Part shown: positions 44,524 through 64,000 of the stretch, one piece after another | Layout of the letters: every line of letters begins with the position of its first letter | Numbering within the stretch: position 1 is the stretch's first letter | Source of the DNA: an uncultured Bacteroides sp. | Lineage (GTDB): Bacteria; Bacteroidota; Bacteroidia; Bacteroidales; GCA-2748055 | Assembly: GCA_964453785.1 (NCBI GenBank) | Contig: CAYVRK010000015.1 | Location: 7,142 to 71,141, forward strand | DNA: 64,000 nt | Direction of reading: 5' to 3' | Position numbers and translations under genes: made by a program | Notes under the pieces: model-generated | Database searches by the model: none | Told to the model about the DNA's origin: nothing | Seen by the model: the letters and a program-made list of their open reading frames with translations, nothing else

Positions 44524-45180
44524 ATGAAACATCTTCGCTTTTCCATGCTTGCTGCACTGGTTTGGATATCCCTCCAACTCCATGCGCAGAGCTCTGCCTG
44601 GGACCGGTGGGATCCCGGGGTGGTCAGAAGCCTCTATACCAGTAACGGCATCCCCTACCTCACCGAAGAGGAGCAGAAAGTGGTACTGTTTATGAACATG
44701 GCGCGATATAACGGGTCCCTCTTTGCCGAAACGTTCCTGAATACCTACGTGGAAGAGAACCAGGTGGAAAACACCAGTTACCTGAGATCGCTTCGAAGGG
44801 AACTGAAGGATGTTTCAGGACTTCCTGCACTGGTTCCCGAGGAGGATCTCACCAGTGTGGCTCAGGGTCATGCTACCAGATCGGGAGAGACGGGTCATGT
44901 GGGTCACAAGGACATGAACAAGCGTTTTGAACCCCTGCGCGGCAATCCCTACTTTGCCTGGGGAGAGAATTGCTCTTACGGTTACGACGAGGCCATCAGT
45001 ATCGTGATCGTCCTGCTGATCGATGAAGATATCGAGGGTGTTGGCCACCGCAGGAACATGCTGAATGCAGCTTACAACTCGGTGGGTGTAGCCATCAGAC
45101 CTCATAAAAACTACCGGTACAACTGTGTAATCGACTTCGGGCAAAAGAGCCGTTCCGGAATCAACCAGGTACCTTACTGA
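44524..45180 (+). CDS. CAP/SCP domain secreted protein
   Basis: There is a signal peptide followed by HVGHKDMNKRF...GENCSYG...GHRRNMLN. The start is moved from TTG 44497 to ATG 44524. Confidence 0.75.
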   Translation: MKHLRFSMLAALVWISLQLHAQSSAWDRWDPGVVRSLYTSNGIPYLTEEEQKVVLFMNMARYNGSLFAETFLNTYVEENQVENTSYLRSLRRELKDVSGLPALVPEEDLTSVAQGHATRSGETGHVGHKDMNKRFEPLRGNPYFAWGENCSYGYDEAISIVIVLLIDEDIEGVGHRRNMLNAAYNSVGVAIRPHKNYRYNCVIDFGQKSRSGINQVPY

Positions 45181-48100
45181 TCATCCTCCTCCTCTTCCTG
45201 GGGCAGAATTTTGCCCTGCTGCCTGTAGGCAAAAAGGCTCAGGACGGTCAATACCACCACAGCCACATAAACAGCCACAGGCATTTTAAAAGCCGAACCG
45301 CTGGCGTAGGAGTGCATCCCACCCAGAAAGTAGTTCACCCCGAAATAGGTCATCATCACCGAAGAATAACTGACGAATGAGGCCAGGTTATAAGCGAATG
45401 CTCCCCTCATTCCGGGAATCCGGTGCATATGGGTCACAAATGCATAGACCAGCACGGTAATCAGTGCCCATGTCTCTTTGGGATCCCATCCCCAGTAACG
45501 GCCCCACGATTCGTTGGCCCATACACCACCCAGGAATACCCCGGCAGTCATGAAATAGAGCCCCACAATCAGGGTAAGATGGTTCACATTGCTTACCTGT
45601 TTGATCACCTCCTGGATCCGTCCTTTGTTCGACCGGGTGAGAAAGGCATACAGCACCACATTCAACAATCCCATGACAGATGCCAGTCCAAGGAATCCAT
45701 ACCCGGCCATGATCACGGCCACATGGATGGAGAGCCATGGTGACTTCAAAACAGGGACCAGGTTTGTAATCTCCGGATTCATATTGCTCATTCCGGCCAC
45801 CATCAGGGCAAGTGCTGCCAGGATACCTGTCAGTCCCATGACATAACCTGACTTCCTGACAAAAATCAGTCCCGCCAGCAGGGTAACCCACGACACGAAG
45901 ATCATCGATTCATACCCGTTGCTCATGGGTGCATGGCCACTGATGTACCACCTTTCTGCCAGTACCAGGGTGTGGATCACAAAGGCAGCTGTCAGACTGA
46001 TGATCCCTATATTAAATAAAATCCTGTAAAGCTTGCGTGTCCGGAAAACGATCATGAACTGCAGGAACATCATCAACACCCCCAACAATCCGTAAAACTT
46101 GGCCAGGCGCGGGAAAACATTGATCCGGTTGTAATTGATCTCCAGCTTCATGGTGGAGTGTGACGGAAGCAGTGATTCATTGGCCAACTGGTTGTCCTTA
46201 AGGTCAACCAGCCTGGACTGGGCCGTTGCGTAGTCTCCGTTCCTCAAAGCATTCAGATACTTCAGGAAAACGGTGGACATTGTATCCCCCTCAGGTTGGG
46301 ACTGATTTGTCAGAGCATCCGAAACGGAGATCCATTTGTGATTCTCTGCATTTTGATCGGGGAATATGGTCACCATACCTCCCGACTGCACCAGGAACAT
46401 GGCATTGATGCGGTCATCCAGTTTGATCACCTCCTTATCCAAGTCGGTCTGCTGGGCAACCTGCTTGGAGTAGGCTTCATTCACGAGGTCTGAAAGCAGG
46501 TATGAACTGCCGCCGGGACCCATCAGGTCATTGAAACTGACCAGGTCTCCCTTAAAGCCGATGACACGGTGCAGTTCGGCATTCTTGATTCTGAACAGAG
46601 GCTGGCTTTGCCAGACATCGGGATAGAGCATCATGCCCAGCATGACCTGGTCGGGAGTATAATCCCGGAACTTTGCTTTCTTGGTAATCTTACGTACCAC
46701 TTCGTGGGAAAGGGTATTCATGGGCTCAAACCTTCCTCCCTTGTCCTGTACCCAAAGGTATCCAAACTCTTTGGCCAACTCCTTTGGGGGAACCATCTGC
46801 GAGAATGCCGGCGTTCCAAGGCCCAGGATCAGCAGCCCCATCACAAGGACCTTCGCTTTGGAAGAGGTTTTTTTCGCAATCATGGCGAACCGGGTGCCCT
46901 TGACGAACATGGCCAGGATCATTCCGCCAATCAGTACAAGGTAACCAAGGTAGGTGATAAAGGTACCGGCCAGGTCCTTATTCACGGACAGGACCGTTCC
47001 TTTCTCATCATTGTCATAGGAGGACTGGTAGAATCGGTACCCCCTGTGTTTCAGTACGTTGTTCATATATATCCGGCGATCTTCCTGGATCCCCCTCTCT
47101 TTGTCCACAAGGACCACCTCACTGGCAAAGGAGGAGGGGCTGTGTGAACCAGGGTAACGCTCCACCTGGAAGTCCTTCAGGAACAAGGAAAATGGAAGAG
47201 GTATCTCCATGGCTCCATAGGTAATGGCATATTTCAGATCACCCATCTCTCCCTGTACAGGATCGCCTATCATGCGTGCCAGTCCGGGGACATACACCTC
47301 AGAGGTCATGCCCCTGTATTCGATTTCAACCCGGACTGCTGCCAGGTGGGATCCCATCTGGCCCTGTGGAGCCTGCACCAGTTTTTTTCTGGCTGAAGGG
47401 ATGAAATTCTGAAGAGCCATCCGCATATGCCCCACCACATACAGGGTTCCTTCCTTGAAGGGAACCTTTGCCCAGGCCGGGTAATCGATCTGTCCATCTC
47501 CTCCCATCTGCATGGAGGAGATGGTGAAGGGAGCTGAAACGCTTATCTCCTGCCCGTCGGAAACAAACCTCAGTATGGCGGTGGTGTCAGGATTGTTAAA
47601 AGAGACATCCATTCCATCCACATTCCGCACCGCTCCGGATGGAAGTCCGACGGAGCTTTGCTGTTCAGCGACCATCACAACCTGAAGGTAGGGCTCTCCC
47701 CCCGGCGCAGCCATAAATTGTTCCATGGCACTGGACATATACCCTGTGGATTTGATCCTTACTTTTTCGCCCCCGATATGTGTACTCATTTTATAATTTT
47801 TCGGCGTAAGCTCTGTGATCATCACCTCTTTGTTATTTTCTTTTCTTTCCCCGTTGGCCTCAAGAACAACCTGCATATACCCGTTGTCGCTGGTCATGGT
47901 ATTGGAAATGGACTGCTCCCTGATATGCATGATTCCTTCATAGCTGATAAACCTGGTAACGGAAGCTCCCAGAAGGATCAGAAGGAATGCCAGGTGGAAA
48001 ACAAGTACAACAATTTTTTTTCTGTTAAAGAATTTATATTTGAACATCACACCCACAATATTGATAGAGATGAGAAGCATCAGGAGTTCGAACCAGTGGG

Positions 48101-48239
48101 TCCCGTAAACCACCGCCCAGGCAGTGGCTGTATCATGGGCACTCTCAATAAAAGTGGCCAGGGCCAGGACAACGATCAGCAGAATCAACAATACACCCAT
48201 GAAGGACATGGAAATCAGAAATGATAATCTCTTCATCAT
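45174..48239 (-). CDS. ccsBA: Fused system II cytochrome c biogenesis protein CcsBA (ResB-like N-terminus plus CcsA haem-handling C-terminus)
   Basis: A 1021-aa product. The N-terminal ResB-like part has TM helices and a large periplasmic loop. The C-terminal CcsA part has the W-rich motif [20 protein letters not shown]. Confidence 0.88.
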   Translation of the reverse strand: [1021 protein letters not shown]

Positions 48240-48287: not shown

Positions 48288-50798
48288 TTAAATATGTAGT
48301 AATGTACCTAACTGGAAAACAGCAAAGCTGGCCACCCAGGCAATGGCTGTGGTGTAGAGAAGGACAAAACCTGCCCATTTCCAGCTGCCTGATTCTCTCC
48401 CTACAGCTGCTACCACTGCCACACAGGGAAGATAGAATAAGACGAAAATCAGAAATGAGATTCCCACCAGGGGGGTGAAAACCGTCTGACCCGCTCGTGG
48501 TCCCGTTGTGTACACCTGCTCGCGAATCCTCGACTGTAAAGAAGCGGCCTCCCCCGGGGGCGCATGTTCATTGGCCTGATAGAGAACGCCTATGGTGCTT
48601 ACCACAATCTCCTTGGCGGCAAAACCGGTTGCCAGGGCAATGCCCATTTTCCAGTCAAAACCAAGCGGGGCAATCACAGGTTCTATGGCCACACCCAGCC
48701 TGCCGATGAAAGAGTGTTGCTGCCGCTCAGCTTCCTGCTCCATCTGCAGGTCAGAAATATGCTCCCTGATGGCACTGATCCGGCCAGAATCCATTCCGGA
48801 ACCCTCCAGGTCCGTCATCTTCTCCTGTTGCAGCGTTATTAATCCATCGAAATCCTTTGAATATTCCACGTCCCTTGGAAAATACCCCAGAGCCCATATG
48901 GCAATGGAAGCCACGAGAATCACGCCCCCCATCTTCTTCAGATAGTGTGCCCCTTTCCCCCACATGTGGCGAAGAATGACCCGGATACCGGGATTGCGGT
49001 AGACGGGCAGTTCCATGACAAAGGGGGCTTCTTTGTTCTTGAACAGTATCTTTTTAAACAGTACAGACATCAGCATGGAAAAGAACACTCCAATCATGTA
49101 GAGCATGAAGATCACATGACCGGCATTATCAGGAAAAATGGCGCCGGCGATCAGCACATACACCGGAAGCCTGGCACTGCATGACATAAACGGGATGATC
49201 AGCATGGTCAGAATCCGGTCATTCCGGTTCTCCAGGGTGCGGGTAGCCATGATGGCCGGTACATTGCATCCAAACCCCATGATCAGGGGGATAAATGATT
49301 TTCCGTGAAGTCCGAAAAGGTGCATCACCTTATCCATGATGAAGGCAGTCCGTGCCATGTATCCCGTATCTTCCATAAGGGATATGAAAAAGAAGAGGAT
49401 CAGGATGTTGGGAAGGAAGACAATCACGCCACCCACACCCCCGATAATTCCATCCACCAGCAGATCCCTCAGGATGCCGTTGGCCATGTTCTCCTTTAAA
49501 AATCCGCTGAGCACTTCCACACCTGCTGAGATCCATTCCATGGGATAATTTCCAAGGGAAAAGGTTGCATGGAACATAAGCCAGAGGAATCCCAGGAAAA
49601 TGGGTAGTCCAAAGTATTTGTGGGTCAGGATTCTGTCAATCCGTTGTGATGAGGAAAATCCCGGATTGGAACCGCTCTTTTTCATGGTCTCCTTCAGGGC
49701 ACCGGCCACAAATCCGTAACGGGCATCGGTGACCAGGCTCTCTGTATCCTCTTTGAAAAGGGTTTCCAGCCTGCGACCCTCTGCCTCAGCCTTTTCACGA
49801 ATCTCGTGAAAGTTCCTGACATCTGCCAGAATATGAGCACAATTGTCATCCCGTTCAAGCAATTTGAGAGAGAGGAAACGGGATGAGAAATGGTCGGTGA
49901 TGGATGGATTTTTCCGGATCAGCCGCTGAATCCTGGAAACCGACGCTTCGATTTCCTCCCCGTAATTGATGTGGATATGCCTGATATCGGGGTCCTCTCC
50001 TTCAAATACCCTGATCACATGGTTCAGTAAGCGGTAAACACCTTTTCCGCGGTGACTGATGGTTGGGACCACCCGGATCCCCAGCAACCGGCTCAGCAGG
50101 CCTATATCCAGCGTATCCTTTCTTGCCTGGAGATCGTCATACATGTTCAGGGCCAATACCACGGTCACATCCATATCGATCAGCTGACTGGTGAGATAGA
50201 GGTTCCGTTCCAGGTTGTTGGCATCAACCACATTCACAACCACATCGGGTTTCTCGTGCAAAATATGTTCCCTTACAAAGCGCTCTTCACTGGAATAATC
50301 AGACAATGAATAGGTCCCGGGCAGATCCGTGATCCTGAATGTGTAGCCCCTGTGAAGAAAGATCGCCTGTTTTGAATCCACGGTCACTCCGGCATAATTG
50401 CCCACATGCTCCCTGGATCTTGAAACCCGGTTGAACAGGGTTGTTTTTCCACTGTTGGGGTTACCCACCAGCGCCACGTCAATGATCTTCCCCGGCCTCG
50501 GGACCACCGGTCCCCGCTGGATGGTATCAGCGAACCGTGAGGAAGGGGGGGCCACTGTTACGGAGGCCATCTCCACTCCTGAGACCACTTCGATCAGTTC
50601 AGCCTCGCTTCTCCGAAGGGAAACATTGCTGTCCATGATTCTGTATTCCACCGGATCCTTCAGGGGAGCCGCCTTCAGCAAGGTGACCGGTTTGCCGCGG
50701 ATAAAACCCATCTCGGAAATTCTTTTCCGGAATGCACCACGCCCCCTGATCCTGGTGATCGTGGCTGTTTCACCCGTATGCAAATCGTTCAGGGTCAT
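48288..50798 (-). CDS. feoB: Ferrous iron transporter FeoB with a fused N-terminal FeoA domain
   Basis: The FeoA-like SH3 segment is LNDLHTGETATITRIRG. The G domain has GNPNSGKTTLFN and DLPGTYSL, followed by a polytopic permease. Confidence 0.93.
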   Translation of the reverse strand: MTLNDLHTGETATITRIRGRGAFRKRISEMGFIRGKPVTLLKAAPLKDPVEYRIMDSNVSLRRSEAELIEVVSGVEMASVTVAPPSSRFADTIQRGPVVPRPGKIIDVALVGNPNSGKTTLFNRVSRSREHVGNYAGVTVDSKQAIFLHRGYTFRITDLPGTYSLSDYSSEERFVREHILHEKPDVVVNVVDANNLERNLYLTSQLIDMDVTVVLALNMYDDLQARKDTLDIGLLSRLLGIRVVPTISHRGKGVYRLLNHVIRVFEGEDPDIRHIHINYGEEIEASVSRIQRLIRKNPSITDHFSSRFLSLKLLERDDNCAHILADVRNFHEIREKAEAEGRRLETLFKEDTESLVTDARYGFVAGALKETMKKSGSNPGFSSSQRIDRILTHKYFGLPIFLGFLWLMFHATFSLGNYPMEWISAGVEVLSGFLKENMANGILRDLLVDGIIGGVGGVIVFLPNILILFFFISLMEDTGYMARTAFIMDKVMHLFGLHGKSFIPLIMGFGCNVPAIMATRTLENRNDRILTMLIIPFMSCSARLPVYVLIAGAIFPDNAGHVIFMLYMIGVFFSMLMSVLFKKILFKNKEAPFVMELPVYRNPGIRVILRHMWGKGAHYLKKMGGVILVASIAIWALGYFPRDVEYSKDFDGLITLQQEKMTDLEGSGMDSGRISAIREHISDLQMEQEAERQQHSFIGRLGVAIEPVIAPLGFDWKMGIALATGFAAKEIVVSTIGVLYQANEHAPPGEAASLQSRIREQVYTTGPRAGQTVFTPLVGISFLIFVLFYLPCVAVVAAVGRESGSWKWAGFVLLYTTAIAWVASFAVFQLGTLLHI

Positions 50799-50801
50799 TG
50801 A

Positions 50802-52067
50802 TCAGAACTTCCCTTTGAAGGTGTAACCCAGTCCTTCGATGGTCTCTTTTACTTCCGTTTCCGAGAGATTCTCAGCCTCCACGGTGACGAGGTTCTTACC
50901 CGGATCGGCAAGGGCGCTGGAAATGGATTCCATCCTTTGCAATCCGTTCTCCACAGTTGCCTTGCAGTGATTGCAGGTCATTCCTTCCACCCTGAAGGTG
51001 TGTATCTGTTTTGTCATCTGTTCGCTATTTATTCTGTTTTTTCTTTTGTTCCTGAACCTTCCAATGATCTTCAACATGTATCCGTTGAATATGAGCAAAA
51101 CCAGCAGTGCCGATGAGGTCCACCGGAGCCATCCCATAGGATGCCCGTGATGGCCCTCATGGATGAATGACGGGATGAATCCGGTGATCCATTCCCGTGG
51201 GATCAGTTCATTGACAAGCACCCCGAAAAAAAGTGCACCCCCGATGATGCTGGAGAGATAGATCCATAAAGTCTTCTTGCCCATGGCATTCCCGATCACA
51301 GCCATGGTGGCAATGTTGGTGGCCGGACCGGCCATCAGCAACACGAGTGCAGCACCGGGTGACAATCCTTTCATCAGCAGCACCGCTGCAATGGGGATGG
51401 AACCGGTAGCACAGATATAAAGCGGCACCGAAGCGGCCAGCATCAGGATCATGGCCAGGTATTCGCTGGAAATGCGGTTGGTAAAAAAGTCGCCGGGAAT
51501 CAGTACCGAAAGAAGGGCGGCCACCATCATCCCGATGATCAGCCATTTGGAGATATCCTGCAGAAGCTCCACAAAACCATACCTGAAGAGTTCCTTCACA
51601 GAACGTTCAGGCTGCTCCACTTCTGAAAGGGCATGTGGCTTTTCCGGCACACCGTTCTTATCGGCTAGGTTGCCTGCCAATCCTCCAATGACACCGGTAA
51701 CCAATGCCACAACGGGCCGGATAATGGCCAGCGGCAATCCCAGCAGTGAATAGGTGGCCAGGATGGAATCCACACCCGTCTGCGGGGTCGAGATTAAGAA
51801 TGATATGGTGGATCCGCGTGAAGCCCCGTTTTTGTAAAATCCAATGCCGGTGGGCAATACGCCGCAGGAGCAAAGCGGCAAGGGTACCCCCAGGAGGGAT
51901 GCATTCAGAACAGACCTGAAATTCCGCTGCCCCATGTATTTGGTGATGATCCGCTGTGGGAAAACTACCCGCAGCACACCCGCAAAAAAAAATCCAAGCA
52001 AAAGGTAAGGCGACATTTCATTCACCAGCCTGACCAGTTCCACCCCATACGATCTTACCATTTCCAT
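50802..52067 (-). CDS. Predicted metal permease (DUF318/ArsP-like) fused to a C-terminal heavy-metal-associated domain
   Basis: It is a multi-TM permease with an LPLCSCGVLP motif. The C-terminal HMA fold carries GMTCNHCKATVENGL. Confidence 0.85.
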   Translation of the reverse strand: MEMVRSYGVELVRLVNEMSPYLLLGFFFAGVLRVVFPQRIITKYMGQRNFRSVLNASLLGVPLPLCSCGVLPTGIGFYKNGASRGSTISFLISTPQTGVDSILATYSLLGLPLAIIRPVVALVTGVIGGLAGNLADKNGVPEKPHALSEVEQPERSVKELFRYGFVELLQDISKWLIIGMMVAALLSVLIPGDFFTNRISSEYLAMILMLAASVPLYICATGSIPIAAVLLMKGLSPGAALVLLMAGPATNIATMAVIGNAMGKKTLWIYLSSIIGGALFFGVLVNELIPREWITGFIPSFIHEGHHGHPMGWLRWTSSALLVLLIFNGYMLKIIGRFRNKRKNRINSEQMTKQIHTFRVEGMTCNHCKATVENGLQRMESISSALADPGKNLVTVEAENLSETEVKETIEGLGYTFKGKF

Positions 52068-56058: not shown

Positions 56059-56144
56059 AGTGCTCAGTACTCAGTATTTTGCACTAGGCACTGAGTACTA
56101 GGCACTCCATTTCCTTTCACCTTTCATCTTTTACCTTTTACCTC
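56059..56144. repeat. Intergenic repeat, site B: ACTGAGTACT/CTCAGTACTCAGT palindromic modules plus the TTCCTTTCACCTT 13-mer
   Basis: 56059-56105 reads AGTGCTCAGTACTCAGTATTTTGCACTAGGCACTGAGTACTAGGCAC. 56111-56123 is TTCCTTTCACCTT, identical to sites A and C. Confidence 0.7.
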
Positions 56145-56151
56145 ATTTGAC

Positions 56152-57540
56152 ATGTTGCCATACGCAGAACCATATAAGATCAAGATGATCGAACCCATGC
56201 ATCCCAGTTCGGCCGGGGAGCGCAAAAAATGGATCAAAGAGGCCGGGTACAACCTTTTCAACCTGAAAAGCGACCAGGTATTTATCGACCTGCTCACCGA
56301 TTCGGGAACCGGTGCCATGAGCCAGGAACAGTGGTCGGCCCTGATGTCCGGGGATGAATCCTATGCAGGCAGCAGGTCCTTTGATCAGCTTCGGGAGACC
56401 ATTACCTCGCTGACCGGTTTCCCCTATGTGCTTCCCACCCACCAGGGCCGGGCAGCTGAAAATGTGCTGTTCTCGGTGATGGTCAAAGAGGATCAAGTGG
56501 TCCCCGGTAATGCTCATTTCGATACCACCAAAGGTCACATCGAATTCAGGAAGGCCAGTGCCTTTGACTGCACCATTGATGAAGCTACCGATACCCGGAA
56601 GTATCACCCCTTCAAGGGCAATCTGGACCTGAACAAACTGGAGAATGTGCTCCAGGTTTACGGCAAAGAGCGGATCCCCATGATCATCGTCACCATCACC
56701 TGCAACTCCACAGGTGGACAACCGGTAAGTATGGAAAATTTGAGACAGGTCAGGGAGTTCAGTAAAAAACAGGGGATTCCTGTGATCTTTGATGCGGCTC
56801 GGTTTGCTGAGAATGCATATTTTATCAAAACCAGGGAGGAGGGTTATGAAAACAGCTCCATCCGTGAGATTGTACGGGAGATGTTTTCCCTGGCCGACGG
56901 GATGACCATGAGCAGCAAGAAGGACGGGATCGTCAACATGGGCGGATTCATCGCCCTCAACAGTCAGGCCATCTACCGGGAAGCAACCATGTACAACATC
57001 TTGTTCGAAGGATATATTACTTACGGGGGCATGTCGGGCCGGGACATGGCCGCCCTGGCCCGGGGACTGGAAGAGGCCACTACCTTCGGGTATCTGGAAA
57101 GCCGGATCAAACAGGTCCATTACCTGGGCCGGAAACTTCACGACATGGGAATCCCCGTACAGGAACCCTTCGGCGGACATGCCATATTCGTGGATGCCAC
57201 CCGATTTCTCCCGCATGTACCCAGGGAGGAGTATATTGCCCAGACCCTGGCCCTGGAGCTCTACCTGGAATCGGGGGTGAGGGCCGTGGAGATCGGAACG
57301 CTTCTGGCAGACCGGGATCCGGAGACCAGGGAGAACCGGTATCCCAAACTGGAGCTTATGCGTCTGACCATTCCGCGGAGGGTCTATACACGCAACCACA
57401 TGGATTATGTTGCAGCGGCGCTTCATCAGGTATACCGCCGCAGGGAAAAAATCACCTCAGGATACAAAATCCGTTACGAAGCCCCCATCATGCGCCATTT
57501 CACAGTGGAGCTGGAAAAAGCAGATACAAGTTCAGCCTAA
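56152..57540 (+). CDS. tnaA: Tryptophanase / beta-eliminating lyase family (TnaA-like; tyrosine phenol-lyase not excluded)
   Basis: It is co-linear with my memory of E. coli TnaA: PYAEPYKIKMIEP, FIDLLTDSGTGAMS, PTHQGRAAE, ARFAENAYFIK, PLP-Lys context SSKKDGIVNMGG, and RLTIPRRVYT. Confidence 0.88.
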   Translation: MLPYAEPYKIKMIEPMHPSSAGERKKWIKEAGYNLFNLKSDQVFIDLLTDSGTGAMSQEQWSALMSGDESYAGSRSFDQLRETITSLTGFPYVLPTHQGRAAENVLFSVMVKEDQVVPGNAHFDTTKGHIEFRKASAFDCTIDEATDTRKYHPFKGNLDLNKLENVLQVYGKERIPMIIVTITCNSTGGQPVSMENLRQVREFSKKQGIPVIFDAARFAENAYFIKTREEGYENSSIREIVREMFSLADGMTMSSKKDGIVNMGGFIALNSQAIYREATMYNILFEGYITYGGMSGRDMAALARGLEEATTFGYLESRIKQVHYLGRKLHDMGIPVQEPFGGHAIFVDATRFLPHVPREEYIAQTLALELYLESGVRAVEIGTLLADRDPETRENRYPKLELMRLTIPRRVYTRNHMDYVAAALHQVYRRREKITSGYKIRYEAPIMRHFTVELEKADTSSA

Positions 57541-59222
57541 TATCCGTAATGCCAGCCCATGTGGTTCTGACCATGACAGTTCAGGTAACACCGACCGGTA
57601 AACAAGCCTGTACTCTCATACCTGAAAGCTCCGTTGAAATGGGGAGAGACGATGTTTACATCAAAGTTGATCAGGTGGGCATTGTTGGTGCTGTTGCCCT
57701 GCGTATGGCTGATGCCATGGGGATCATGGCAGGCATTACAGGGAGTCTGAAGGTCACGTATGTGTTTGTCGTGATCATCAAAAGATTCATCACCCAGGAT
57801 GCTGTTGCGGTTGTGACAGCTGTAACACAGTTCATAGGCAGACGCCGACTCAACCGTATAGTCAGCCGTCAGGTACCTGTATTTAAGCAGAGCCGGAAAA
57901 ATGGAACCATGTGGACCAGCGGGAGATCCGCTGCCATCGCTGGCATGACAATCGGTGCAGTAAATGACGCTGGATTCGGTCAGGGGCGGGATCAGGCTGG
58001 GCACATTTGGATTGGTGCCCGGTGAGTTGACCGCATGATGGGATGGATTGGCCGGGTCAAATTCAAGCCGTACATTGTTTTGCACCACCAAGCGGGTGGT
58101 TAAACTGGCAGGCTTGGAGGGACTATCAGCATGGCAACGGTAGCATAATTCATAGGCATACTGAAGGGGGACCACCGGATTACCGCTCTGGTTCACCCCA
58201 CGGGCCCCGGTAAGGAATCCATTGGCAGCGGGAGCCACGGCAGAAGTATTGTTCACAGCATGTGGATTATGACAATCTTCACACTCCACATGCATGGAGA
58301 GTGCCTGGGCATCCTCGCCGGCATCATGCTCCAGGTTGTATCCATACACATTGTGCAGGTATGGTTTGGCCAGCTGGGCAACCAGATTGGTGGATGCCAC
58401 GTTGCCGTTGTGACAGGGGAGGCAGTTGCCCTCTTCATCCAAAGTATTCATCAGCCTTCGCTTGTTCCCTGCACCATGCGGATCGTGACAATTCTCACAT
58501 GCATTCTCTGCCACATTCGGGTAGCTTGTATGGGGCCAGGGATCATTGCCGTTGCCGTTCCAGGTAGCTGTGGATGTACTGTGGATTGAAAATGTCCAGT
58601 AATCCCTTTCGTGACAGCTGAAACAGAGCTCCGAATACCGGTTGGTGACCCTTAGAAAATCATTGGTCAGGTTCCGGTGGGGATCATGGCACGATGTACA
58701 TTGCATGCGACCGTTATCCAGGACAACCGGGGGTACAATGGCAGTGGGATCCTTCAACTGTCCGTCAGCCGCCGCAAGTCCGGTGGTATAATCAAATGAA
58801 ACAGGGTGGTCATCTGCCAGGTCGGTTGACAGGTTGGCGTGACCTGCGGGCATGCTGGTGATTCCATCTGCAAACTCAATATCACCGGTCCTGCTGATCA
58901 CATTGCCCAGGGCCGTGGTTCCGTCGTGGCAGCTCAGGCAGAGTATGGAGGCACCATCGGGCTGACCCGGCACCGCCTGAACAGTGGAGCTGTGGTACAG
59001 GGTATAGGTATAGCCCGGATCATGCTTGTTCCAGAGCGGACTGGAGGGGCGTGTGTTGTGGGGCGTGTGACAAAAAACACAGATCTCCGGTTCGGTACTG
59101 GCCTTCACATCACCGGGACCCGTCACCGACAGGTTATGGACCGAATTCACAATGGATTGTGAACCTGCCCAGGGTGTGAAAAGAAGAAGGAAAAGCGCTC
59201 CCATCACTATGGTTTTTCTCAT
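57537..59222 (-). CDS. Secreted multihaem c-type cytochrome, 11 CxxCH plus one CxxxCH (12 sites)
   Basis: There is a signal peptide. The sites are CVFCH, CLSCH, CTSCH, CFSCH, CENCH, CLPCH, CEDCH, CYRCH, CTDCH, CYSCH, CNACH and CYLNCH. Many occur as CxxCH(D/N)PH, the doubled-CXXCH style. Confidence 0.92.
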   Translation of the reverse strand: MRKTIVMGALFLLLFTPWAGSQSIVNSVHNLSVTGPGDVKASTEPEICVFCHTPHNTRPSSPLWNKHDPGYTYTLYHSSTVQAVPGQPDGASILCLSCHDGTTALGNVISRTGDIEFADGITSMPAGHANLSTDLADDHPVSFDYTTGLAAADGQLKDPTAIVPPVVLDNGRMQCTSCHDPHRNLTNDFLRVTNRYSELCFSCHERDYWTFSIHSTSTATWNGNGNDPWPHTSYPNVAENACENCHDPHGAGNKRRLMNTLDEEGNCLPCHNGNVASTNLVAQLAKPYLHNVYGYNLEHDAGEDAQALSMHVECEDCHNPHAVNNTSAVAPAANGFLTGARGVNQSGNPVVPLQYAYELCYRCHADSPSKPASLTTRLVVQNNVRLEFDPANPSHHAVNSPGTNPNVPSLIPPLTESSVIYCTDCHASDGSGSPAGPHGSIFPALLKYRYLTADYTVESASAYELCYSCHNRNSILGDESFDDHDKHIRDLQTPCNACHDPHGISHTQGNSTNNAHLINFDVNIVSPHFNGAFRYESTGLFTGRCYLNCHGQNHMGWHYGY

Positions 59223-60193
59223 GGCAATCCGTTTTTAACCCGTTCAAAGATCTGGATCCTTCCGTTATAACTGTCGGCCACATAAATGCGATCCTGTTCA
59301 TCGATATAAATCCCTGCCGGCATCCAGAACTCTCCTTCCCCTTGTCCCTGCTTCCCAAAGTTGTAAAGGTAGTGTCCTTCCCCATCGAAGATCTGGACCA
59401 CATGAAACAGGGCGTCGGCCACATAGATGTTCCCTTCTGAATCGGTGGCAACTCCTTTCGGCCTGGCCAGGTTTCCCGTGGCATCGCCGCTCTCTCCGAA
59501 TACAAAGAGAGCTGTTCCCTGCTGATCAAATGCCTGCACACGAAAATTCATTGAATCAACAATATACACCCGTCCATCCTGGTCAATCCAAATGAAAGTG
59601 GGATAATTGAAAGCCCCCGAAGCCGAACCCCGTTCACCGATATACTTCACAAGTTCTCCTTCTCTGTCCAGTACACAAATCCTGTGGGCCCCGGTCTCCA
59701 CCACCCATATTTCCTGCCTGCTATTGCAGTAGGCAATCCCGGTGGGCTGATCAAATGAAACAGACCCGGATAGAGGAGACAATCCCTTTTCTGAGATCCT
59801 GAATACCAGGTTCTTCCTTGAGTCGGTACAGAGCAGATCACCTCCCGGCATCCGACACATCCCTACCAGTGAGGGGAATTCCCGGGCTGCCTTTTTTATG
59901 GATTTAAGCTCATGAGCCACTCCCTCATTGCACTCGAAAACAGTTCCGGCACCCTGATCCAGAATCAGGAATTCCTGTGGAGTGAGCGCTACAATTCCAA
60001 AGGGTTTGATCACTTCCTGAGGCATTCGTCCGAATACAAGATCGGAAACACGCCGGCTGAAGGTGGTTTTTTGATCCTCCTTAACCGGTGGAAACTGACC
60101 GATCCACCTGATCTTATATTCACTGCCCGTCTGCGCAGCTATGGTGGAGAGACAATAAAAAAACCACACCCATAGAGCCAGTTTTCGTTTCAT
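59219..60193 (-). CDS. NHL-repeat six-bladed beta-propeller protein, secreted
   Basis: The signal peptide is MKRKLALWVWFFYCLSTIAAQ. NHL units include FNYPTFIWIDQDGRVYIVDSMNFRVQAFD, LARPKGVATDSEGNIYVADALFHVVQIFD and FWMPAGIYIDEQDRIYVADSYNGRIQIFE. The start is moved to ATG 60193. The stop overlaps the next gene's start by 4 nt. Confidence 0.88.
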   Translation of the reverse strand: MKRKLALWVWFFYCLSTIAAQTGSEYKIRWIGQFPPVKEDQKTTFSRRVSDLVFGRMPQEVIKPFGIVALTPQEFLILDQGAGTVFECNEGVAHELKSIKKAAREFPSLVGMCRMPGGDLLCTDSRKNLVFRISEKGLSPLSGSVSFDQPTGIAYCNSRQEIWVVETGAHRICVLDREGELVKYIGERGSASGAFNYPTFIWIDQDGRVYIVDSMNFRVQAFDQQGTALFVFGESGDATGNLARPKGVATDSEGNIYVADALFHVVQIFDGEGHYLYNFGKQGQGEGEFWMPAGIYIDEQDRIYVADSYNGRIQIFERVKNGLP

Positions 60194-60243
60194 CCCATCG
60201 AACAGGGATCTTCTATATTTGACTTCACTCCTCATACAGCACT

Positions 60244-60284
60244 CTTTTCCCTTTTTCCTTTCACCTTTTCCCTTTTCCCTTATT
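60244..60284. repeat. Intergenic repeat, site C: pyrimidine-rich tract containing the TTCCTTTCACCTT 13-mer
   Basis: 60255-60267 is TTCCTTTCACCTT, embedded in CTTTTCCCTTTTTCCTTTCACCTTTTCCCTTTTCCC. Confidence 0.65.
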
Positions 60285-61166
60285 TCACCTGGTATAGGAG
60301 AGATTTCCATGACACCCGGGAAGACAGGATCCTCCGTTCTCACGGGGTATAAAATTCATCTCCATTTCCCATTTCCCGAATTCCACGACCTCTTCCACGA
60401 GGTATGGCTGGGGTGATCCATGCAGGTTATGGCACATCCTGCAATTCCTGCCTTTGTTCCCGTTGATGTGAACGAAATGCAGGTTTCTGTTCCCGTTCCT
60501 GAAATTGGTTGCCCACTGGGTCTCCTCTGCATCGATGATATCGGTGTCATGGCAAAGAAAACAGAGTTCAAAATTCTCCGTTTTTGCCGGCAGGTAATCT
60601 GCTTCCGGGTATGGAGTGTTCAGGAGCGCCCTGTATTCCGATCCGTGGGCCTGATGACATACCGTGCAACCGCCCCCGTCTATGGCCGAATGGGCCATGG
60701 CCTGTCCGCGAACCAAGCGCCTGATGTTGATGGTCTCAGAGGAATCGGTCCTGTAGACCCTGTTGTGACAGGAGAGGCACAGTTCCTCCCCCGGAAGGTG
60801 CAGGAGACTGGGTTCAGAGGATCCGTGTGCATCATGACATGACAAACATGCTCCCTCTGCCACCGGCTGGTGTCCATGCGACGGGTCTGCGGGCTCCTCA
60901 TGACAATAAAAACAGAGTTCCGGTATTTGGTCCATCAGTGTAAAACCCATCACCCCTTCCCGGGGATGGGATTCACCTGTTGACTCGTGGCAGTTGTCAC
61001 AGGCATCCGAGGCAGGCATATGCATCACCTCATGTTCCACCAGCGCTCCATGACAATCCACACACATGCTTGTCTGCAGGACTTTCTTCCCATGACCCGC
61101 GTGGGATGCTGCCGGACCCGGGAGGAAAAGCGAGATCAATATTTCTACAATGATAAAATGGATCAT
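60285..61166 (-). CDS. Multihaem c-type cytochrome, 8 CxxCH plus one CxxxCH (9 sites)
   Basis: It has an N-terminal hydrophobic signal/anchor. The sites are CVDCH, CDNCH, CFYCH, CLSCH (twice), CTVCH, CFLCH, CRMCH and CLPGCH. Confidence 0.9.
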   Translation of the reverse strand: MIHFIIVEILISLFLPGPAASHAGHGKKVLQTSMCVDCHGALVEHEVMHMPASDACDNCHESTGESHPREGVMGFTLMDQIPELCFYCHEEPADPSHGHQPVAEGACLSCHDAHGSSEPSLLHLPGEELCLSCHNRVYRTDSSETINIRRLVRGQAMAHSAIDGGGCTVCHQAHGSEYRALLNTPYPEADYLPAKTENFELCFLCHDTDIIDAEETQWATNFRNGNRNLHFVHINGNKGRNCRMCHNLHGSPQPYLVEEVVEFGKWEMEMNFIPRENGGSCLPGCHGNLSYTR

Positions 61167-61185
61167 ATCAGTCCCTTTTCATGCA

Positions 61186-63147
61186 TTAAAATTTCCGTGT
61201 CAGCTGGACATAAGCGCCATTGAAAGCAAACCAGCTGTTCTGGTACGTCCGCCTGTACATCTCCACACCCACCCTCACATGGAGTTTATTGAATACCGAA
61301 TGGAATTCTGCCCTGGCCGTCAGGAGGTCCAGGTCGATATTCCTCCCTCTCTGGTTCAGATATCCAGACTCCAGGCTTACCCTCATCTGCGGACGAATCC
61401 TGTAGGCCAACTTTCCGGATATATTGGTATAAAGCTGGTCCTCCTGATCAGCAATCATCCTGTAATCACGTACATTTCCATTGAGGGTAAAGATCAGCCT
61501 GGATTTATAATTCCAGTTCATATCCACATAGTACCGCTTCATCCTGTAAGGAATGATATTGCTGTCATACAGGTCGGCTTCAATTCCGGCTCTGGCAAAT
61601 CCCACATCCATCCGTACACCGAAAACATTCTGGCTGTAATAGTTCAGCGTCAGCAGATCCCCCTGGTCTACCTTCGGATAATCCTGTACCGAATACCGGT
61701 AATAAAACTCCAGCAAGCGATTAAACAGCTGGACGCTGGCACTGAAATGGTTGTTGTTTGCCCCGTACGAATAGGTCCCGGGTTGCCGGTAGGTGTAATC
61801 GATATATACAGAAGAATTATTGGGGATCAGTCCGCCCGGCACCCTCTGGATTTCCATATAACTGGCTCTTTCTATAAGTATATAGTCAAAATTGGGCTGG
61901 TAAATAATGGTCCCTGTACCATCCTTCACCACCACGGATGCCACCTCCACATAGGGCTTATTCAGCAGGATCAGCACACCGTCGGTCAAGCCCTGTTCCT
62001 CATTGATGATTTGCAGGAAACCCGTTACTCCCTCTGAAGAATGATGATGCCTGTAATAGCGGTAGGACAGGTTCAGGTGCCCGGTAGGTATTTTCTTGGT
62101 GTACCTGAGGTCCACCCCACCCCTGGTATCTGTTTCTTCATGCAGGGTGGCGGCAACTTGATTCACTTTGGCATACTCAATGTAAACCTTTGTGGTCAGG
62201 CTCTGGAACAGTTTGTGCTCAAGAGAGGCCCGCCCCCGTTTCTGATCCCAGGTCTGTATGGGATCTTTCAGGTTATAAAGGTCAAAATTCCCCCTCAGTT
62301 TCAGTTGATAGGGCAGCTGCAGCGAGACTCCTTCAAGAACCTCCACCCGCCTGAAGCTTGTGGTCCCCTCCTGGTCATACCAGGTGATCCTGGAGTTCAG
62401 ATTGTATCTCCTTCCGGCATCCAGGTATACATTGTTGTTCATTGCCACCCGGTTCGTCAGATGCTGCGTCCGGTGCAGTTCGGCATAGCTGTAGAGATAG
62501 TTGTTGTGCGCACAGACCAATTCACTGCGGTCCCTGGAACCGAATGATTTGCTTGTCCTCACCTGGAGGTTTTCCTGGTCCATACTGAACTTGCGGCCAG
62601 TCTGTGTCTCTTCCTGGTCCCAGTTCTGGTTCCGGTATGTAACGGTAACCGGCAGGATCCTGTTGTTCAACGAAAGGATAGCGCCCCACTGCAAGTTATT
62701 GGACCTGACATTGGTAAGCAATTCACGGTTGTAGTAATTCTGGTCAAAATTGAAAAATCCCTGGAGTGTGACCGGTTTGTTGTTACATAAGGTGGCCGTC
62801 AGGTCCACCTTTTTCAGGGTCCGGACTTCGGACCGGTCAGGAATGGTAATGTATTTCTCATCCCTGGTCTCGGGACTGTAAGCACCATTCAGATCAATCA
62901 GGAGGATCTCTTCATCCCAGAGGTAGCTGCTGGTATTCAGCTTGATCCCTCCCAGCAGGTAAGTGCTTCTCTGATCTTCGGTAACTTCGTTGAAATTACT
63001 CTCCAACTGCCGGTACTGCCCCCTCAGGTCCACCTCCCCGGTAATGCTTCTGAATTGCCAGATGCCCGGTTTAGGGGCCGGTTGTGAAAAACAGAAGACC
63101 GGGCCCAGCATGAAAGCTACCATCCATATGTTCCTGATCGTTTTCAC
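61186..63147 (-). CDS. Large outer-membrane beta-barrel protein (porin-like, 653 aa)
   Basis: The signal peptide is MKTIRNIWMVAFMLGPVFCFSQ. There is a pervasive alternating aromatic/polar strand pattern rich in Y/R/N, and a C-terminal ...YVQLTRKF with terminal Phe, typical of OMPs. Confidence 0.8.
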   Translation of the reverse strand: MKTIRNIWMVAFMLGPVFCFSQPAPKPGIWQFRSITGEVDLRGQYRQLESNFNEVTEDQRSTYLLGGIKLNTSSYLWDEEILLIDLNGAYSPETRDEKYITIPDRSEVRTLKKVDLTATLCNNKPVTLQGFFNFDQNYYNRELLTNVRSNNLQWGAILSLNNRILPVTVTYRNQNWDQEETQTGRKFSMDQENLQVRTSKSFGSRDRSELVCAHNNYLYSYAELHRTQHLTNRVAMNNNVYLDAGRRYNLNSRITWYDQEGTTSFRRVEVLEGVSLQLPYQLKLRGNFDLYNLKDPIQTWDQKRGRASLEHKLFQSLTTKVYIEYAKVNQVAATLHEETDTRGGVDLRYTKKIPTGHLNLSYRYYRHHHSSEGVTGFLQIINEEQGLTDGVLILLNKPYVEVASVVVKDGTGTIIYQPNFDYILIERASYMEIQRVPGGLIPNNSSVYIDYTYRQPGTYSYGANNNHFSASVQLFNRLLEFYYRYSVQDYPKVDQGDLLTLNYYSQNVFGVRMDVGFARAGIEADLYDSNIIPYRMKRYYVDMNWNYKSRLIFTLNGNVRDYRMIADQEDQLYTNISGKLAYRIRPQMRVSLESGYLNQRGRNIDLDLLTARAEFHSVFNKLHVRVGVEMYRRTYQNSWFAFNGAYVQLTRKF

Positions 63148-63165
63148 ATCATCCTGATCAATAAT

Positions 63166-63771
63166 CTATTGAAAAATATACCGGTCCTCACCCCCGTGGG
63201 GATTGTGGCAGTCCATACAAGTCATGCCTTCCAGTCCCTCGTGTATCTCGTTCCTGAACACGCTTTCAGCCTGGTGACAATAAAAGCACAGTTCTTCACC
63301 CGTAAACCTGAGTAGCTTCGCTTGTTCGGACATATGAGGATCATGGCACGAAGTACAATATCCCCCGGCCACAGGTCCGTGCAGGTATTGAAACCTGTCA
63401 TTTAAATCCTCGTGACATGTGTAGCAGAGTCCCGGCTGGGGTTCAGTCATGCTGCCCAGTGCCTCCGGGTCGTGGCAGGCTTCGCATTCTCCCTCTTCAT
63501 AGGGATAGTGTATGAATAGCGTTTGGACCTCCTCTTCCGGATCATTTGCAACAAGGTTGGCGGAGTCTGCCGGAAAAGCCTTGGATCCTTGCAGCTCCAC
63601 CCGGGTGCTGTCTGATTCGGGAACCCCATCGAAAAAAAAAGTCAACAGGCTCTTCCCGGAAGGGGAACACTGGCTGAGCAGGAAAATACCAACCGTAAGG
63701 AGAAATCCCACCCATATTTTGCCTTCCTGGTTCATCAATTGAGGGTTAAGGTGAAGAGGGCTTCTCTTCAA
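63166..63771 (-). CDS. Pentahaem c-type cytochrome, lipoprotein-like
   Basis: The sites are CEACH, CYTCH, CTSCH, CFYCH and CMDCH. The N-terminus is hydrophobic with LLSQC. The start may be the internal ATG at 63735, which would remove the overlap with the upstream gene. Confidence 0.88.
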   Translation of the reverse strand: MKRSPLHLNPQLMNQEGKIWVGFLLTVGIFLLSQCSPSGKSLLTFFFDGVPESDSTRVELQGSKAFPADSANLVANDPEEEVQTLFIHYPYEEGECEACHDPEALGSMTEPQPGLCYTCHEDLNDRFQYLHGPVAGGYCTSCHDPHMSEQAKLLRFTGEELCFYCHQAESVFRNEIHEGLEGMTCMDCHNPHGGEDRYIFQ

Positions 63772-64000
63772 CGAAACCGTATATATTCACCTTTGCCGGC
63801 CCATACTGGTTGGTTACGTAAATCAGGTATTTCAGCTCAAAACTTTCATCCACATAGGGTTGAAAATATGAAAGATTTTCATAGCTGATCTCCACTGCAG
63901 CCGGAAGCCACATGGCCCCGGCTCCTTCATAGGCGCCGCCAAAATACATCAACAGTTCCCTCCTGCCATTGAAGATCTGTACATTCTCAAAGGCGGCATC
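63746..64000 (-). CDS. C-terminal 84 codons of an unidentified protein, first visible gene of the cytochrome operon (continues past the window end)
   Basis: The frame is open from the window edge (DAAFENVQIFNGRRELLMYFGGAYEG...VEEKPSSP*). I recognise no domain. Confidence 0.5.
   Translation of the reverse strand, partial: DAAFENVQIFNGRRELLMYFGGAYEGAGAMWLPAAVEISYENLSYFQPYVDESFELKYLIYVTNQYGPAKVNIYGFVEEKPSSP

Follow-up and report, generated by a model that had tools for sequence, protein, structure and literature searches.

What kind of system is encoded by the block of multihaem cytochrome genes that closes this stretch of DNA? The window, by which we mean the whole 64,000-nt stretch of contig CAYVRK010000015.1 (positions 7,142 to 71,141) from an uncultured Bacteroides sp., ends in a minus-strand operon encoding cytochromes, NHL-repeat beta-propellers and a large outer-membrane beta-barrel. 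A sequence-only reading of the window had taken this operon for a trans-outer-membrane electron conduit in which the 9-site cytochrome, the barrel and the 12-site cytochrome correspond to MtrA/OmaB, MtrB/OmbB and MtrC/OmcB, respectively. Our comparisons retained a multihaem electron conduit around a large outer-membrane barrel in Bacteroidota, but not the Mtr/OmcB-type layout: these one-to-one assignments were not the best match, and an OmcE-type set fitted better. The operon very probably encodes an outer-membrane electron-transfer system and, on balance, we regard it as probably the Bacteroidales version of the OmcE-type cytochrome nanowire cluster of Geobacter and Desulfuromonas, working by the mechanism proposed below.

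A seven-gene operon that extends beyond the window

Of the seven genes of the operon, the window covers the 3' five and a half: five complete genes and one partial gene, all co-directional on the minus strand. The whole operon is present on a public 14.9-kb contig (L001; window coordinate = 70999 - L001 coordinate) in the order tetrahaem cytochrome, propeller NHLa, pentahaem cytochrome, barrel, nonahaem cytochrome, propeller NHLb and dodecahaem cytochrome. The suggestion of the sequence-only reading that further components lie upstream of position 64000 thus held, with L001 carrying the rest of NHLa and an OmcE-like tetrahaem gene, the first of the operon, about 0.9 kb past the window end. The genes are as follows, in window numbering.

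57537-59222, minus strand: dodecahaem cytochrome, open reading frame (ORF) of 561 amino acids (aa)
59219-60343 (ORF), minus strand: NHL-repeat beta-propeller NHLb, 324-363 aa, with the start at 60310, 60235 or 60193
60285-61166, minus strand: nonahaem cytochrome, 293-aa ORF
61186-63147, minus strand: outer-membrane beta-barrel, 653-aa ORF, or 645 aa from the called start at 63123
63166-63735 (ORF to 63771), minus strand: pentahaem lipoprotein cytochrome, 189 aa from the called start, 201-aa ORF
63746-64000, minus strand: C-terminal 84 codons of the NHL propeller lipoprotein NHLa, partial and running off the window end
beyond the window, up to about 64828: remainder of the NHLa gene, 360 aa when complete (L001:6171-7253)
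about 64869-65507, outside the window: OmcE-like tetrahaem gene, 212 aa (L001:5492-6130)

The spacings reported earlier were correct given the start codons chosen there: 18 nt between the barrel (63147) and the pentahaem ORF (63166), 19 nt between the nonahaem ORF (61166) and the barrel ORF (61186), 91 nt between the nonahaem gene and NHLb when the NHLb start is taken as M51 (60193), and a 4-nt overlap of the dodecahaem gene with NHLb (59219-59222). The public gene call of the barrel starts 8 codons later than the 653-aa ORF; the resulting 645-aa form is found on L001, which is identical to the window sequence.

Homology of the tetrahaem and dodecahaem proteins to OmcE

The tetrahaem protein (212 aa, four CxxCH motifs) aligned over its full length with two filament structures, 9YUQ_N (E = 5.6e-20) and 7TFS_A (1.3e-18). 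The latter entry is the OmcE nanowire of G. sulfurreducens (PMC12954529) and the former a bundled OmcE filament of Desulfuromonas soudanensis (bioRxiv 10.1101/2025.10.22.684050). In phmmer searches of PDB sequences, residues 1-205 of the dodecahaem cytochrome matched the same two structures (7TFS_A, 3.2e-35; 9YUQ_N, 4.2e-24), and a profile built from OmcE and the tetrahaem protein matched this region at E = 1.7e-55. The remainder of the dodecahaem protein, residues 206-561, carries eight more haems in doubled-CXXCH units and gave generic haem-motif matches only. We considered a dodecahaem protein made of three tandem OmcE modules and ruled it out, because the OmcE profile matched residues 1-205 only; the C-terminal part shares just 50-60-column doubled-CXXCH motifs with that profile.

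Alignment of 30 Bacteroidales tetrahaem proteins with 120 OmcE homologues showed no variation in the four CxxCH motifs or the four distal-ligand His, and the N-terminal module of the dodecahaem protein retains the same eight haem-ligand His of OmcE. Among 41 homologues of the dodecahaem protein, 28 His are invariant. An AlphaFold2 model of this protein from the 41-sequence alignment was unusable, with a predicted local distance difference test score (pLDDT) of 32.6 and a predicted template modelling score of 0.18.

Variants of the OmcE-like protein were seen in a Chlorobiota-labelled metagenome-assembled genome (MAG; L035), where the protein (L035:7621-8229) contains a fifth haem motif, a CIGCH insert. 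After its post-barrel cytochrome, this locus also encodes an additional OmcE-like paralogue of 246 aa with 5 haems (L035:13004-13744), similar to the "5-haem OmcE-like" family for which an OmcZ-like, leaky character was predicted (bioRxiv 10.1101/2025.10.22.684050).

Haem motifs and export signals

The 26 haem sites (5 + 9 + 12) counted earlier were all recovered, as 24 canonical CxxCH and two CX3CH motifs. The pentahaem protein contributes 5 CxxCH, the nonahaem protein 8 CxxCH and one CLPGCH, and the dodecahaem protein 11 CxxCH and one CYLNCH. Both CX3CH sites are conserved, the nonahaem one, at the C-terminus as GGSCxPGCH, in 28/28 orthologues and the dodecahaem one (C545, C549, H550) across all 41 homologues. 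At the composition of the window about 0.0035 CxxCH per 1000 aa would be expected by chance, and the motif is absent from all of the roughly 50 other ORFs in the window, so the haem motifs of the operon are far beyond chance. The CxxCH(D/N)PH form described by the sequence-only reading occurs in six strict cases, with ten of CxxCHxxH, across the three window cytochromes. Its doubled-CXXCH domains correspond to Pfam Paired_CXXCH_1, which matched all three (4e-31 for the dodecahaem, 6.5e-28 for the pentahaem and 8e-35 for the remaining cytochrome).

Signal-peptide-like N-termini were likewise seen on all products. A conserved lipobox Cys was found only in the pentahaem protein and the upstream propeller NHLa, and not in NHLb. 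The pentahaem protein is lipoprotein-like, as had been proposed, with the lipobox ...LLSQC-SP and a Cys conserved in the orthologues examined (14 loci). The other operon cytochromes have plain Sec signal peptides, including the dodecahaem protein, whose Sec-type signal is without lipobox, and no recognised surface-export signal was found in any operon cytochrome.

Partner genes shared with Desulfuromonadia omcE clusters

We used the G. sulfurreducens omcE region (L039) and a canonical two-propeller cluster (L043) as reference loci. L039 is ordered resB, ccsB, 370-aa cytochrome, 330-aa cytochrome, NHL protein, omcE, 752-aa protein and glycosyltransferases, and its 752-aa protein had no family match. 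A "Rhodocyclaceae" contig (L042) looks like a Geobacter-type locus, and L041 was too short to inform on more distant OmcE/barrel loci.

The nonahaem cytochrome matched the 370-aa cytochrome of G. sulfurreducens in phmmer at 2.4e-62, with 37% identity over 266 aa reaching the C-terminus, and cyt328a of L043 at 1.6e-59. Both propellers are recognisable by Pfam NHL, at 1.6e-30 for NHLb (which also matched the 6-bladed propeller family DUF5128 at 1.1e-14) and 1.1e-13 for the partial NHLa ORF in the window. Against the NHL protein of the G. sulfurreducens omcE cluster they scored 4.4e-46 (NHLb) and 6e-37 (NHLa), and in L043 the best matches paired one to one, NHLa with NHL350 (3.5e-37) and NHLb with NHL360 (8.4e-45). 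Over all comparisons with the Geobacter and L043 propellers, E-values ranged from 1e-30 to 1e-46. The pentahaem protein matched both the 370-aa (5.7e-37) and the 330-aa (7.4e-24) cytochromes of G. sulfurreducens through repeated doubled-CXXCH units.

Family comparisons with Mtr-type systems were weaker, and no operon protein passed an Mtr family model. Similarity of the nonahaem protein to MtrA (6R2Q_A, E = 1.3e-10) was partial, relating residues 56-178 to the C-terminal part of MtrA, and its score with the DmsE family model TIGR03508 was 67.9 bits for a cut-off of 192.2. The dodecahaem protein had no match to TIGR03507 (OmcA/MtrC), whose cut-off was reached by no operon cytochrome, and it passed the generic haem-domain model PF22113 (47.4 bits). 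An MtrC-like lipoprotein was ruled out for it, as it has no lipobox and carries an N-terminal OmcE module instead. Matches to NF041028, the GSU2203 family decahaem model, were sub-threshold (51-60 bits; cut-off 325). By these family models, the system appears not to be an Mtr member, and it is probably not a Geobacter-type porin-cytochrome (Pcc) system either.

A barrel of about 30 strands from an undescribed family

The barrel ends in ...TRKF, in agreement with the large barrel with a terminal Phe noted earlier. Its AlphaFold2 model, built from an alignment of 50 homologues, had a pLDDT of 86.7, and DSSP assigned 30 long antiparallel strands to the product of 61186..63147. The strands are linked by turns of 1-9 residues, except for a loop at residues 83-99 and an insert at 380-436 (645-aa numbering); the loop is charged and conserved, and the insert of 57 residues is conserved as well. 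The sequence-only reading had named a small (16 strands or fewer) or plugged barrel as grounds for abandoning a conduit; the model has about 30 strands and no TonB-type plug, and the 57-residue insert appears far too small to plug the modelled lumen. With about 30 strands, compared with 26 in MtrB and a predicted 28 in UetC, the barrel should by standard barrel geometry be wider than MtrB, if the model is right. As its loops are short, an empty pore would be leaky.

The densest invariant residues of the barrel family sit in segments 83-99 and 380-436, not in the strands, and include the motifs PExRDExYxxxPDRSEVR and VKDxxGxIIYQxNFDY...EIQRVPGG. These two segments are likely contact sites for partner proteins.

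A Foldseek search of the model against the PDB returned large outer-membrane barrels only, namely TonB-dependent receptors, ushers, LptD, SlpA and MtrB, with MtrB (6R2Q_B) having the top template modelling score (TM-score) of 0.46. The 653-aa protein had no Pfam or NCBIfam match, none of the 50 homologues matched MtrB_PioB (PF11854, E<=1) or another Pfam outer-membrane barrel family, and the barrel profile had no match at E<=10 among PDB sequences. Every homologue is an unnamed protein of 640-655 aa encoded in a MAG of Bacteroidales, Bacteroidota or "Chlorobi", and a profile search yielded 1753 representatives (50% clustering) at E<=1e-3, 346 of them below 1e-30. Judged by these searches, the barrel belongs to what appears to be an undescribed protein family. 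Since the polypeptide contains no CxxCH or variant motif, a Cyc2-type fused cytochrome-porin was ruled out.

Conservation of the operon and its surroundings

Scanning GTDB at one genome per species, we obtained 37 loci, all from MAGs labelled Bacteroidales, Bacteroidia or Bacteroidota save the Chlorobiota one (L035). The operon is syntenic in these loci with the seven-gene order conserved, and of the 32 whose contig extends far enough upstream, 31 have the OmcE-like gene. The sole informative locus without the subunit gene is that of a Rikenellaceae-labelled MAG (L017:1-9400), which keeps the pentahaem-to-dodecahaem genes and only the last ~100 codons of NHLa, with 10 kb of upstream sequence present. 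NHLb and the dodecahaem gene travel as a unit in L026, L030, L031 and L035, so that each OmcE-module protein has its own adjacent propeller.

The cytochrome that follows the barrel varies in haem content, with 8, 10, 14 or 20 CxxCH across loci, which suggests a wire of variable length. Its expanded forms (20 CxxCH in L026:11884-13557; 14 each in L020:4960-6291 and L023:4154-5425; 8 in the window) all retain a C-terminal GGSCxxGCH. Additional giant genes directly follow the cluster in one Bacteroidales MAG (L031:8310-15294); their products are an NHL-like protein of 985 aa and a protein of 1333 aa that contains 19 CxxCH. In three Microflora Danica long-read bins (L003, L019, L036) several operon genes are split into 2-3 ORFs, through either frameshift sequencing errors or decay of the copies.

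Clustering of the ORFs flanking the 37 loci revealed recurrent neighbours of overall housekeeping or transport type: the beta-eliminating lyase, MatE, a WD40 protein, an ArsP-HMA permease, FeoAB, a histidine kinase, YicC, a cytidylyltransferase and guanylate kinase. None of these flanks contained a linked reductase, molybdo/FeS subunit, cytochrome b or quinol dehydrogenase. The earlier observation that no reductase or quinol dehydrogenase adjoins the operon within the window therefore extends to its relatives; consistent linkage of homologous clusters to a catalytic reductase would have spoken for another function, and none of the 37 loci had one.

Within the window, a gene for a beta-eliminating lyase (tryptophanase-like) at 56152-57540 on the plus strand converges on the operon, and its 3' end overlaps that of the dodecahaem gene by 4 nt (57537-57540), which leaves no space for a terminator between them. 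A 427-aa minus-strand ORF (56143-57426) antisense to the lyase gene is most likely spurious. Further downstream of the operon, by about 9 kb, lies a minus-strand gene for a fused ResB-CcsA protein (CcsBA, system II cytochrome c maturation; 1021 aa, 45174-48239), echoing resB-ccsB at Geobacter omcE and ccsAB beside uet. On the same strand are a fused FeoA-FeoB ferrous-iron transporter (48288-50798) and an ArsP-type permease with a C-terminal heavy-metal-associated domain (50802-52067). FeoAB recurs near the operon in 12 related loci and the permease in 14, which may reflect mere shared synteny of close relatives or a link to Fe(II) handling. Upstream of the operon on L001 lie divergently oriented genes for a MatE transporter and a hybrid histidine kinase.

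Proposed mechanism

From the homologies, conserved motifs, synteny, barrel size and lipoboxes described above, we infer where the cytochromes sit, that some of them may polymerise, which way electrons flow, and what the propellers and the dodecahaem protein do. Electrons would leave an inner-membrane quinol dehydrogenase, not encoded in the window, for the pentahaem lipoprotein, which would be anchored in the outer membrane facing the periplasm, and for the nonahaem cytochrome. The latter, a candidate trans-barrel wire that is partly MtrA-like, would sit in or at the wide, short-looped barrel and carry electrons through the outer membrane. Outside the cell the OmcE-fold proteins, tetrahaem subunit and dodecahaem, would extend the haem chain, most likely as a short or long polymer held together by inter-subunit His-haem ligation. 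The dodecahaem protein may act as an adaptor (base or cap) joining the conduit to the filament. Assembly or scaffolding would fall to the two NHL propellers, one of which is genetically paired with each OmcE-module protein. The barrel might also serve as the exit pore for subunits, an export role that has been proposed for barrels at OmcE and OmcS regions (bioRxiv 10.1101/2025.10.22.684050).

A more specific version of this mechanism is put forward tentatively, and we would not expect all of its parts to hold together. Bacteroidales would build an OmcE-type haem filament on a sequence-unrelated family of ~30-strand barrels, with the dodecahaem protein as the missing adaptor. Its OmcE module would dock on the filament end via an inter-subunit His-haem bond, while its eight extra haems would join the barrel conduit or form a reactive tip.

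Points against the nanowire interpretation

Several observations count against placing the operon among the OmcE nanowire clusters. Each of the 30 Bacteroidales tetrahaem proteins has an additional, ninth invariant His within the motif PLWNH; the corresponding residue is Arg in all 120 OmcE homologues and Lys or Arg in the N-terminal module of the dodecahaem protein. According to Petersen et al. (bioRxiv 10.1101/2025.10.22.684050), a filament "stopper" would carry nine His with four haems, so the substitution might alter polymerisation behaviour. By this analogy, the ninth His could mean a self-ligated monomer or a cap, not a polymerising subunit; it might equally do no more than replace a propionate-binding Arg.

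The barrel, one of the defining partners of the cluster, had no detectable sequence relationship to the 750-aa barrels of Geobacter-type omcE clusters. Their hhalign probability was 1.1% against the G. sulfurreducens protein and 0.4% against a 3-sequence profile, and hmmsearch with a 164-sequence profile gave 0.7 bits. With profile-sequence, profile-profile and wide-profile hidden Markov model comparisons all lacking signal, we do not claim homology, and on this evidence the barrel would be analogous to the Geobacter one at best. The accessory cytochromes also differ, with three present against two expected and no clear orthologue of the Geobacter 330-aa/328b octahaem protein; the closest is the pentahaem protein, at ~7e-24, a match resting on repeated motifs. 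The cytochromes proposed to be extracellular have neither a lipobox nor a recognisable secretion domain, and neither the window nor the flanks yielded an inner-membrane module for electron input. All carriers are uncultured MAGs, and all the evidence is computational. The physiological role of cytochrome filaments is itself a matter of debate for Geobacter (PMC11077965).

Alternative explanations

The alternative that survives best is a plain porin-cytochrome conduit with no filament, which we think possible but doubtful. The barrel would sheathe the nonahaem cytochrome as in MtrAB, the OmcE-fold proteins would be monomeric, and the tetrahaem and dodecahaem proteins would be surface or periplasmic partners passing electrons to soluble or mineral acceptors. 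A large, short-looped barrel with MtrB as its top structural match and a partly MtrA-like nonahaem protein would both suit such a conduit, and the ninth invariant His of the tetrahaem protein could complete haem ligation in cis. OmcE-like tetrahaem cytochromes are moreover widespread and need not all polymerise (bioRxiv 10.1101/2025.10.22.684050), and putative novel porin-cytochrome clusters in Bacteroidetes MAGs were noted by He et al. (bioRxiv 10.1101/392027). What speaks for the nanowire cluster instead is that the partners of OmcE clusters are conserved, among them two orthologous NHL propellers for which Mtr or Pcc systems have no need, that all eight OmcE ligand His are kept, including the N-proximal one, and that no Mtr, DmsE or OmcA family model was passed.

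The same hardware might instead run in reverse, as Uet-like electron uptake from Fe(II) minerals, cathodes or partner cells, which we consider unlikely. The Uet parts list is strikingly similar, multihaem conduits are reversible in principle (PMC10734462), and cytochrome and NHL clusters of D. ferrophilus have been tied to electron uptake (PMC5815863). However, the Uet-specific genes are not among the seven operon genes, and the window offers no context of autotrophy or of an oxidase. Uncultured Bacteroidales of anoxic soils and sediments are generally organotrophs in need of electron sinks.

A periplasmic multihaem redox network that does not cross the outer membrane, serving electron storage or the detoxification or reduction of a soluble compound imported by the barrel, would accord with the plain Sec or (pentahaem) lipoprotein signals and the lack of a recognised surface-export signal in the cytochromes, but is highly improbable given that none of the 37 loci has a linked catalytic subunit, that a barrel of 30 strands and minimal loops does not resemble a substrate-specific channel, and that two of the proteins are homologous to an experimentally extracellular filament subunit.

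Significance

Bacteroidales, usually regarded as fermenters, rank among the most abundant anaerobic heterotrophs of soils, sediments and digesters. With a conserved OmcE-type system they would be able to respire by passing electrons to minerals, humics, electrodes or partner cells, and if our interpretation is true, a sixth and ecologically very abundant phylum joins the nanowire makers. The source labels of the 37 species-level MAGs include Danish soils and sediments, Guaymas, Chesapeake sediment and lakes, and the operon suggests that common sediment and soil anaerobes can pass electrons outside the cell.

Work on cytochrome nanowires and the genes that accompany them has dealt almost exclusively with Desulfuromonadia, and how filaments are exported, anchored, started and stopped is open (bioRxiv 10.1101/2025.10.22.684050). 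A base or cap protein encoded in OmcE operons was sought by Petersen et al. and not found (bioRxiv 10.1101/2025.10.22.684050); if the adaptor role of the dodecahaem protein is true, it would provide the first candidate for such a protein from within an OmcE operon. As a natural fusion of an OmcE module with eight further haems, it is a concrete candidate, open to testing, for what links the filament to the conduit. A sequence-unrelated barrel doing the same job as the Geobacter-type one would be an informative variant, and the propellers, which stay orthologous across phyla, look like the partners that are truly indispensable.

Porin-cytochrome clusters of unknown type have been noted in Bacteroidetes MAGs and were not tied to OmcE (bioRxiv 10.1101/392027; PMC8258643), and in the literature searched we found no paper linking OmcE to Bacteroidota gene clusters. 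What appears to be new, from the gene comparisons, is thus the occurrence of an OmcE-type cluster in a sixth phylum, where the barrel comes from a different family and an OmcE module is fused into a dodecahaem protein.

Comparison with known systems

By description, the Desulfovibrio ferrophilus IS5 clusters DFE_0448-0451 and DFE_0461-0465 resemble the operon in having multihaem cytochromes co-transcribed with NHL beta-propellers, but they contain no barrel gene. They have been proposed to act at the outer membrane, and their deletion caused no defect in Fe(III) oxide reduction (PMC5815863; PMC9769857).

The MtrCAB (6R2Q), MtoAB and PioAB systems share with the operon the combination of a large barrel and a multihaem wire, and MtrB is the top structural match by TM-score (0.46). 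In contrast to them, the barrel has about 30 strands rather than 26 and no MtrB_PioB match, an MtrC-type lipoprotein decahaem cytochrome is lacking, and the operon has NHL propellers and OmcE modules.

The Uet cluster of Ca. Tenderia electrophaga and some Gallionella, described and proposed to serve electron uptake in bioRxiv 10.1101/2022.05.06.490989 and PMC10734462, is similar as a parts list only: it includes the tetrahaem UetA, the 28-strand barrel UetC, two NHL proteins (UetH and UetI), the 11-12-haem doubled-CXXCH UetJ and ccsAB nearby. Unlike the operon, it has a peptidyl-prolyl isomerase, three c7 trihaems and a cupredoxin, which are absent from the seven operon genes.

OmcE clusters were reported from five phyla, Bacteroidota not among them, by Petersen et al. 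2025 (bioRxiv 10.1101/2025.10.22.684050). The operon differs from them in its phylum, Bacteroidota, in its 645-aa barrel without detectable similarity to the 750-aa ones, in its gene order, in the extra pentahaem lipoprotein and the dodecahaem OmcE-module fusion, in the ninth invariant His that replaces Arg in the subunit, and in having no adjoining glycosylation island. It shares with them an OmcE-family tetrahaem subunit with four CxxCH and four distal His, and two NHL propellers, which are lipoproteins in the cluster definition whereas the lipobox Cys is conserved in NHLa only here. Also in common are a 9-11-haem doubled-CXXCH cytochrome (10-11 haems in Desulfuromonadia), a large outer-membrane barrel gene within the cluster and a system II cytochrome-maturation gene nearby (resB-ccsB in Geobacter).

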